A DNA stretch of 20,000 nucleotides from an uncultured virus (IMG/VR IMGVR_UViG_3300008261_000048) (IMGVR_UViG_3300008261_000048:57938-77937), one strand, 5' to 3'; shown: positions 19,475 through 19,535, counted from the first letter of the stretch. Translations and numbers: made by a program. The notes: a model not told the origin generated them from the letters alone.

Positions 19475-19484
19475 TATACTAAGT

Positions 19485-19508
19485 CCTGGTTTATCCGTTT
19501 ACCCCAGG
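19485..19508 (+). ncRNA. Candidate antisense hairpin (3' UTR sRNA) complementary to early-gene leaders
   Basis: CCTGG/CCAGG stem; the loop contains TATCCGTTTA, the reverse complement of TAAACGGATA. Confidence 0.4.
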
Positions 19509-19509
19509 C

Positions 19510-19535
19510 AGGGACCCCAAAAGGGTCCCTTTTTT
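19510..19535 (+). terminator. Rho-independent terminator
   Basis: AGGGACCC-CAAAA-GGGTCCCT stem-loop followed by a T run. Confidence 0.9.

Follow-up and report, generated by a model that had tools for sequence, protein, structure and literature searches.

The window, by which we mean the whole 20,000-nt stretch analysed, is the final 20 kb of one 77,937-nt virus contig, and every sizeable ORF in it lies on the + strand. Near its end, a 385-aa gene of unknown function (18317-19474, + strand; phrog_1362, match at 1e-07) carries a hairpin in its 3' UTR. The hairpin (19485-19508, + strand) starts 11 nt past the stop codon. In the minimum free energy structure, CCTGG (19485-19489) pairs with CCAGG (19504-19508) and closes a 14-nt loop, UUUAUCCGUUUACC (19490-19503), that contains the core UCCGUUU. 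One base further on, an intrinsic terminator is found (19510-19536, + strand; AGGGACCC-loop-GGGTCCCT followed by T6), with an 8-bp stem including 6 GC pairs and a 5-nt loop; it ranked first in a listing of 11 terminator-like sites. The stem, the loop size and the terminator were all confirmed as described in the initial annotation. The two-hairpin fold has a predicted energy of -22.6 kcal/mol, matched by 6/200 shuffled sequences.

The host gene of the hairpin had been labelled DUF932-like, and this label was not upheld: a Pfam search including PF06067 returned zero families at E<=10. Only a language-model look-alike search pointed that way, to DUF932-containing clusters (score 0.97) in which 25-30% of members carry PF06067, and we treat the kinship as a lead only.

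Within the loop, the 10-mer TATCCGTTTA (19492-19501, + strand) is the exact reverse complement of TAAACGGATA, the sequence found immediately before several start codons in the window. The resulting minus-strand copy of the motif, the only one, runs into AAC rather than ATG, in agreement with the earlier view that it is not itself a leader. No promoter conserved among relatives was found ahead of the hairpin, where TATACT was limited to the window clade. An Rfam cmscan of 14000-20000 at E<=1 gave nothing at 19475-19540 and two weak matches elsewhere. Part of the stretch was present in 17 metatranscriptomic RNA runs, and contigs from 4 of them covered the 385-aa gene; none reached past 19524, and one ended at 19504, followed by adapter letters. 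These contigs are neutral on the presence of a small RNA because their ends and strand are invisible and DNA carry-over is possible.

A motif at translation starts

On the + strand, TAAACGGATA occurs exactly at 925, 15717, 17562 and 17923, each copy running into the ATG of a gene (934, 15726, 17571 and 17932), and the variants AAACGGAAATATG and AAACGGAATATG precede genes 1281 and 16275. All six lie where the initial annotation had placed them. With its start codon the exact leader reads TAAACGGATATG, and a motif search located it before an 88-aa gene (925-936), a 154-aa gene with a phrog match (15717-15728; phrog_3754), an 85-aa gene (17562-17573) and a 96-aa gene, the first of the hairpin-terminated operon (17923-17934). 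The variant leaders stand before a 98-aa gene (AAACGGAAATATG, 1271-1283) and a 57-aa gene (AAACGGAATATG, 16266-16277), again on the + strand. The products of the leader-bearing genes are small (57-154 aa) and have no family of known function, and the assignment of these genes to an "early" class is a guess.

Most leaders follow a promoter-like unit. The unit TTGTATTAAATTTATACTATAAT, with tCCCAA ahead of it, lies at 898-920 on the + strand, and further copies start at 1247, 15687, 16238 and 17896; the leader at 17562, located 3' of the preceding gene's stop codon, is the sole copy without one. Across the contig we found 7 full copies of (t/a)atCCCAA-N4-6-TTGTaTTAtATTTATA, and AAACGGA followed in 7/7. 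The unit includes TAAATTTA or TATATTTA, which resembles the Bacteroidetes -7 box TAnnTTTG given in the excerpted text of PMC7366714, and is a promoter candidate by sequence. In the contig the gap between unit and motif varied from 7 to 15 nt and that between motif and ATG from 1 to 3 nt. Because the gap to the ATG is near-constant and the gap to the promoter-like unit variable, and because the 17562 copy is promoterless, the motif is tied to translation starts and not to the promoter. Its start-site copies are all sense-oriented.

GGAG, GAGG or AGGA was present at -18 to -5 in 6/79 ORFs, compared with 14/79 at a control position inside genes, and the A fraction in the 15 bases upstream of starts was 0.52, compared with 0.35 genome-wide. 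Judged by these counts, Shine-Dalgarno sequences are absent from most of the predicted genes, as in Bacteroidota. The same pattern, mRNAs without Shine-Dalgarno sequences and with A-rich starts, is reported for Bacteroidetes in the excerpts of PMC7366714.

Counts within this one genome gave a lead. With up to one mismatch and on both strands, the window held 6 matches to the motif against 1.94 expected, and 3/200 shuffles reached 6. In the 77,937-nt contig, where composition predicts 0.10 copies of TATCCGTTTA, we found one, on the + strand; the contig-wide count of the loop 10-mer, proposed as a check, therefore came to a single copy in 77.9 kb. At least one copy was held by 19/300 first-order Markov simulations of the contig. 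TCCGTTT occurred once in the contig (2.9 expected), and AAACGGA 16 times (7.2 expected), 9 of the 16 at start sites. The complementarity within a single genome is thus mildly unlikely. This observation is suggestive only, and the weight of the case comes from relatives.

The hairpin and the leaders in related phages

Relatives were found via the 385-aa protein, at 61-100% identity to the window protein, in IMG/VR (8 loci at first, then 23), in a species-genome collection (4) and in one metagenome scan that yielded 186 relatives, 80 of which were kept. Hairpin-bearing relatives are widespread in lakes and oceans. Among 105 loci, 6 end ahead of the region, and the remaining 99 represent 60 distinct 110-nt downstream sequences. 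TCCGTT was present in 60/60 of these; T[TAC]TCCGTTT was present in 62/62 distinct 120-nt downstream sequences and in 4/4 MAG contigs. In the relatives the motif always lies in a hairpin loop, with the stop codon 5' and the terminator 3', and the loop consensus is UUU..(U/C)UCCGUUU(U/A). The earlier proposal had been made to depend on persistence of the loop in relatives that keep the leader, and in these 62/62 and 4/4 sequences the loop was kept, on stems that covary.

The stems differ widely in sequence: CCTGG/CCAGG, CCAGG/CCTGG, CCGGG/CCCGG, CGGG/CCCG, CTGGG/CCCAG, AAACCGGG/CCCGGTTT, TCAAGGT/ACCTTGA, GGTTAGTAG/CTACTAATC, AACCTGG/CCAGGTT, GTTGG/CCAAC and CCTCAAC/GTTGAGG were all seen. In clade A3 (ungapped alignment of 17 sequences, 12 distinct), 98.3% of cells formed standard pairs and 2/5 pairs had changed on both sides: the middle pair is AU, GC or UA, and the second is CG or UA. 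When the 3' partner was slid by 1-3 columns, pairing fell to 22-65%. In the marine clade A5 (18 sequences), 92.8% of cells were paired, 4/7 pairs showed changes on both sides, and the slid alignments were 28-63% paired. The covariation score was reached by 0/500 shuffles in either clade. Across 50 distinct hairpins, own flanks folded at -8.5 kcal/mol and swapped flanks at -5.56 kcal/mol (0/5000 permutations), with the limit that both the covariation and the flank statistics are inflated by relatedness of the sequences.

Constrained folds and duplex energies were used in place of a helix finder that permits G-U pairs, which was uninformative (6.32 pairs with own flanks, 5.81 swapped, 5.61 shuffled). 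A covariance model, R1, built on the clade with 14-nt loops, recovered 21 hairpins at E below 0.01; it failed to generalise to longer-loop clades, and its alignment, A4, was therefore set aside. Many unrelated stem sequences present one loop core, which leaves little doubt that stem and loop sequence are both selected. On these comparative grounds, the hairpin is a real, conserved, structured RNA element.

The element belongs to this phage family. A DNA search of cultured and GenBank phages with 18300-20000 gave zero matches, and a protein search of phages found one homologue only, at 25% identity, in a 484-kb uncultured phage. At that locus the terminator was present and the hairpin motif absent. 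In the most distant carrier of the element, L029 (61% identity), the hairpin loop contains TCCGTT three times in tandem (2293-2338).

Two further features were seen around the relatives' hairpins. In 13/62 distinct downstream sequences (L022, L055, L059, L061, L066, L068, L079, L087, L097, L101, L103 and others), a second, longer hairpin precedes the main one, 3' of the stop codon, with a stem of the form CAATTGCAATACT.../...AGTATTGCAATT or similar and the loop UUUUA(C/A)CCGUUCC. Many marine relatives (L013, L017, L024, L065 and others) carry CAATTGATTATGAAATAAA just past the stop codon, 5' of the hairpin; it resembles half a promoter, since AATTGATTAT is common to the upstream half of the promoter-like unit.

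The leaders are conserved along with the loop. Relatives keep the promoter-like unit and, 1-9 nt before ATGs, AAAACGGA(A/T); AAACGG(A/T) was seen 1-17 nt before ATGs, mostly 3' of the promoter-like unit. At 90/106 loci examined, the fetched DNA included the hairpin motif together with one or more A/T-rich AACGG-ATG leaders. Contiguous complementarity between a loop and its own leaders was 8-13 nt in every clade: 10 nt in the window clade (TAAACGGATA), 10-11 nt in L020 (AAACGGAAAT), 11 nt in the large marine clade (AAAAACGGAAA), 12 nt in L029 and 8 nt in L006, L007, L101 and L103. In L006 and L007 the loop has UUUCCG facing GGAUAUG in most leaders, which leaves 8 nt, and in L101 and L103 there is an A·C mismatch at the loop base beside the core. 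The window-clade loop has an A where others have U, facing the U of GGAUAUG; L006, with 99% protein identity, has U.

Loop and leader were compared for covariation, as had been proposed. The 7-nt core is kept in both partners, and outside the core co-variation is weak: a mean contiguous match of 9.10 nt in own pairs compares with 8.75 nt in cross pairs, the own match being the longer in 43/67. The window clade did best, at about 9.5 compared with 7.3. Because the invariant core gives no loop-leader compensation, the sequences are also compatible with recognition of both places by a shared protein. Counted over whole records for three larger relatives, TTCCGTTT did not differ in number from a reversed-pattern control.

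Predicted loop-leader duplexes had energies of -12.1 to -12.2 kcal/mol, against a genome mean of -4.37 (sd 2.23). This placed them among the best ~15 non-overlapping sites of the contig (z about -3.5), with about eight others equal or better. These values are from a scan with the loop alone, rerun after inclusion of stem bases had put unrelated GC-rich sites on top. The best predicted loop duplex, at -15.4 kcal/mol, involves 18207-18221 (GGTAATCGGATAAAT), a coding site at the end of the 96-aa gene that matches the reverse complement of the loop and closing bases at 13/15 positions. It is uninformative because it is kept only in clades that possess the 96-aa gene.

Proposed pairing of loop and leaders, and its alternatives

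Conservation, stem covariation and kept leaders give good support to a functional RNA element with a loop complementary to the start-site motif. For two independently frozen 7-nt cores that are exact complements, we see no reason other than pairing or one shared reader, as far as sequence can tell. We favour RNA-RNA pairing between the 3'-UTR loop and leaders, in one form or another, with a probability of about 0.65. Pairing itself, repression, and action beyond the operon's own mRNA are what we infer. The mechanism of the earlier proposal is plausible and gained strength from the comparison with relatives that it called for, with a separate stable sRNA, action in trans and a timer as its putative parts.

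The pairing would proceed as follows. The loop is predicted to display UCCGUUU, single-stranded and with U-rich flanks, directly 5' of the terminator, and could pair with AAACGGA located 1-9 nt ahead of the ATG in promoter-proximal genes. In the window the duplex would comprise 10 contiguous bp from -9 to +1, reaching the A of AUG; in marine relatives the duplex would span roughly -13 to -3 of the start region. At an open, A-rich start without a Shine-Dalgarno sequence, such a duplex would exclude the 30S subunit and reduce translation, and might also leave the mRNA open to decay. Because the duplex would lie within the ribosome footprint on mRNAs that need an open A-rich leader, repression is what we would expect. 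Part of the target would be missing if transcription starts inside the motif. The hairpin's operon has the same promoter class as the candidate targets, so that hairpin level should track target level and produce negative feedback on the class.

Pairing in cis or within the operon and pairing in trans are equally live. A multi-target form able to act in trans, in which the loop pairs with the leaders of other mRNAs and represses them, is held tentatively and would fall somewhat short of an even chance. The acting RNA would be either the 3' end of the mRNA itself or a fragment processed from it. The argument for this form is numerical: the contig has nine start sites with the motif and one hairpin. 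Invariance of the core would follow, because many targets would block change in either partner, and the frozen CGG in otherwise A-rich leaders would be explained, since CGG/CCG supplies the only strong pairs. A bolder version is doubtful: AAACGGA would be an address tag on one promoter class and the hairpin RNA its master anti-tag, which would give a lytic phage a temporal switch made of RNA alone. Build-up of the anti-tag would then shut off translation of the whole class at once in hosts that do without Shine-Dalgarno pairing, in what would be a widespread family of aquatic jumbo phages, probably of Bacteroidota.

We consider it unlikely that the loop binds no leader other than the one with which its own (operon) mRNA begins, in a closure that would adjust translation of this message, or shield or uncover its ends, and leave other mRNAs untouched. 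The location is suitable for this, as the hairpin invariably follows this one gene, that of the 385-aa protein, and the window operon opens with the leader-bearing gene 17932. Upstream of the 385-aa gene itself, AACGG was present within 32 nt of the ATG in 34/49 distinct upstream regions (next base T in 20, A in 14), and a full AAACGGA-type leader within 15 nt in 8/71 distinct 700-nt upstream regions; the other 15/49 own leaders, including that of the window (AAATCGCAAT), are without the motif. The second hairpin offered a parallel, in that its loop (ACCGUU or CCCGUU) was accompanied by AACGGU in the own leader at 14/14 loci and it was found at 0/34 loci otherwise, but this association is confounded by clade, and 20 loci with AACGGU are without the second hairpin. 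Cis-only closure also leaves unexplained the conservation of the motif on hairpin-free genes, at 9 start sites in the contig.

A reader protein is less probable still. Here a phage or host protein would recognise AAACGGA / TCCGTTT, as double-stranded DNA in either orientation or in the RNA loop. Such a reader would fit a 7-nt core that is invariant in loop and leaders alike, without compensatory changes, the weak flank co-variation, and the position of the motif just 3' of a conserved promoter-like unit, which is typical of an operator. RNA-RNA pairing is favoured over it because a site read as double-stranded DNA would have no use for a hairpin, and here many compensatory changes preserve the stem; nor would such a site need the spacing of the leader to be fixed to the ATG rather than to the promoter, with one copy promoterless, or a single orientation at start sites. 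An RNA-binding protein would be unable to read both a sequence and its complement.

That the stem is an accessory 3'-end structure, stabilising the mRNA end or aiding termination, with the leader match a coincidence, is very unlikely. Adjacency to the terminator is what such a structure would show, the 10-mer is not very improbable in one genome (the 19/300 simulations), and other genomic sites pair equally well in silico. Stabiliser stems need no invariant loop, however, and here the loop core is fixed and the stems are free. The fixed 7-nt loop core is, moreover, the complement of the motif, a match of ~1 in 16,000 per register (4^7), and the L029 loop has three tandem UCCGUU units. Finally, AAACGGA behaves like a ribosome-binding element in being near the ATG and present without a promoter, but recruitment of ribosomes through an rRNA UCCGUUU, with the 3'-UTR loop as a decoy copy, is highly improbable given that CCGTT is absent from the 16S of the Balneolaceae MAG that holds a relative's contig (one genome, 16S only).

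Known antisense RNAs and other features of the contig

3'-UTR-derived sRNAs are known from enterobacteria. As in those RNAs, the element follows a coding gene at the mRNA 3' end, uses the intrinsic terminator of the mRNA, and has a conserved single-stranded seed, 5' of the terminator hairpin, that is complementary to candidate target mRNAs. It differs in that the seed would be presented in a closed loop and not as a linear 5' stretch, and in that the candidate targets are the phage's own genes. The c4 antisense RNA of phages P1 and P7 reportedly uses hairpin loops to pair around a ribosome-binding site on the same transcript. It is likewise a phage RNA whose hairpin loops face sites around the ribosome-binding site; c4, though, lies upstream of a single target operon, icd-ant, and serves temperate-phage immunity, whereas here the element is in a 3' UTR and has many candidate targets.

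In icaR of Staphylococcus aureus, a 3'-UTR motif is said to be complementary to the 5' ribosome-binding region, and this is thought to block initiation. The likeness is a short 3'-UTR motif that complements the initiation region of an mRNA. In icaR one mRNA is targeted, in cis, at its Shine-Dalgarno sequence, whereas the motif described here is not a Shine-Dalgarno sequence, occurs at many start sites, and is matched in a covarying hairpin loop beside a terminator, in a phage. In the window, the first gene of the operon has the leader and the hairpin gene's own leader is without the motif. Precedents for 5'-3' UTR interaction are provided by icaR (PMC3868564) and hbs (PMC5737220), as far as the excerpts of those papers go.

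For Bacteroides thetaiotaomicron, the excerpted text of PMC7366714 lists 21 UTR-derived sRNA candidates and describes the sRNA GibS, a repressor that pairs with mRNAs without Shine-Dalgarno sequences at their translation initiation regions. According to those excerpts, GibS resembles the present element in having a conserved single-stranded seed directed at the initiation regions of such mRNAs, and differs in being intergenic and chromosomal, with a linear 5' seed and metabolic targets; the two have no sequence relation.

No known Rfam family, phage antisense RNAs included, matched the hairpin at E<=1. In open-access papers and bioRxiv we found neither the element and its motif nor the phage family described. 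What sets the element apart from these systems is the combination of a terminator-fused loop seed, a non-Shine-Dalgarno motif common to a promoter class, and a lytic-type jumbo phage. To our knowledge, the phage antisense RNAs described so far have one target each, and RNA-based control in Bacteroidota phages, and in jumbo phages generally, is almost unexplored. Here one conserved loop faces a motif common to many start sites in mRNAs without Shine-Dalgarno sequences, under simple design rules: a 7-nt core, a loop and a terminator. If true, pairing across these sites would show a phage co-regulating a gene class post-transcriptionally and would explain the frozen CGG motif in A-rich leaders.

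CheckV estimated the completeness of the 77,937-nt contig at ~30% and that of larger relatives (122-182 kb) at 40-65%, from which the source phage is probably a jumbo phage of roughly 260-310 kb. A host search using the 415-aa glycosyltransferase gave no result. Short contigs of 4 relatives (L113-L116) were binned in MAGs labelled Bacteroidota, Rhodospirillaceae, Balneolaceae and Flavobacteriia, and these labels are a weak hint towards Bacteroidota and allies; a Bacteroidota host is likely.

Between the terminator and the contig end, 19545-20000 is non-coding, of higher G+C, and rich in CTAG palindromes and repeats. Directly 3' of the terminator, a small inverted repeat, CCCTTG ... CAAGGG, lies at 19548-19585, and several freshwater relatives keep CCCTTGATAGGAAATC(T/C)GCTGTA. 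The stretch also contains a perfect 19-nt inverted repeat (19614-19632 / 19663-19681), two copies of CACACTCTAGAG and repeats of the CTACAGGCCCTAG type. CACAC...CTAGAG blocks were found again 3' of the terminator in distant relatives, and several assemblies break near the position of this stretch. It could represent an origin, a region for packaging or the end of a genome.

Auxiliary-looking genes in the window encode a cREC_REC receiver domain (7028-7453), a calcineurin-like phosphoesterase (8527-9204), a cytidylyltransferase-like protein (9656-10093), an MGS-like domain (11182-11556) and a DXD glycosyltransferase (11561-12808). Outside the window, at contig positions 11089-14651, aragorn identified an array of 22 tRNA genes with a tmRNA (tag ending ...ADYAVAA) ahead of it, and just 5' of these RNA genes lies a leader-bearing 68-aa gene (ATG at contig 10315).
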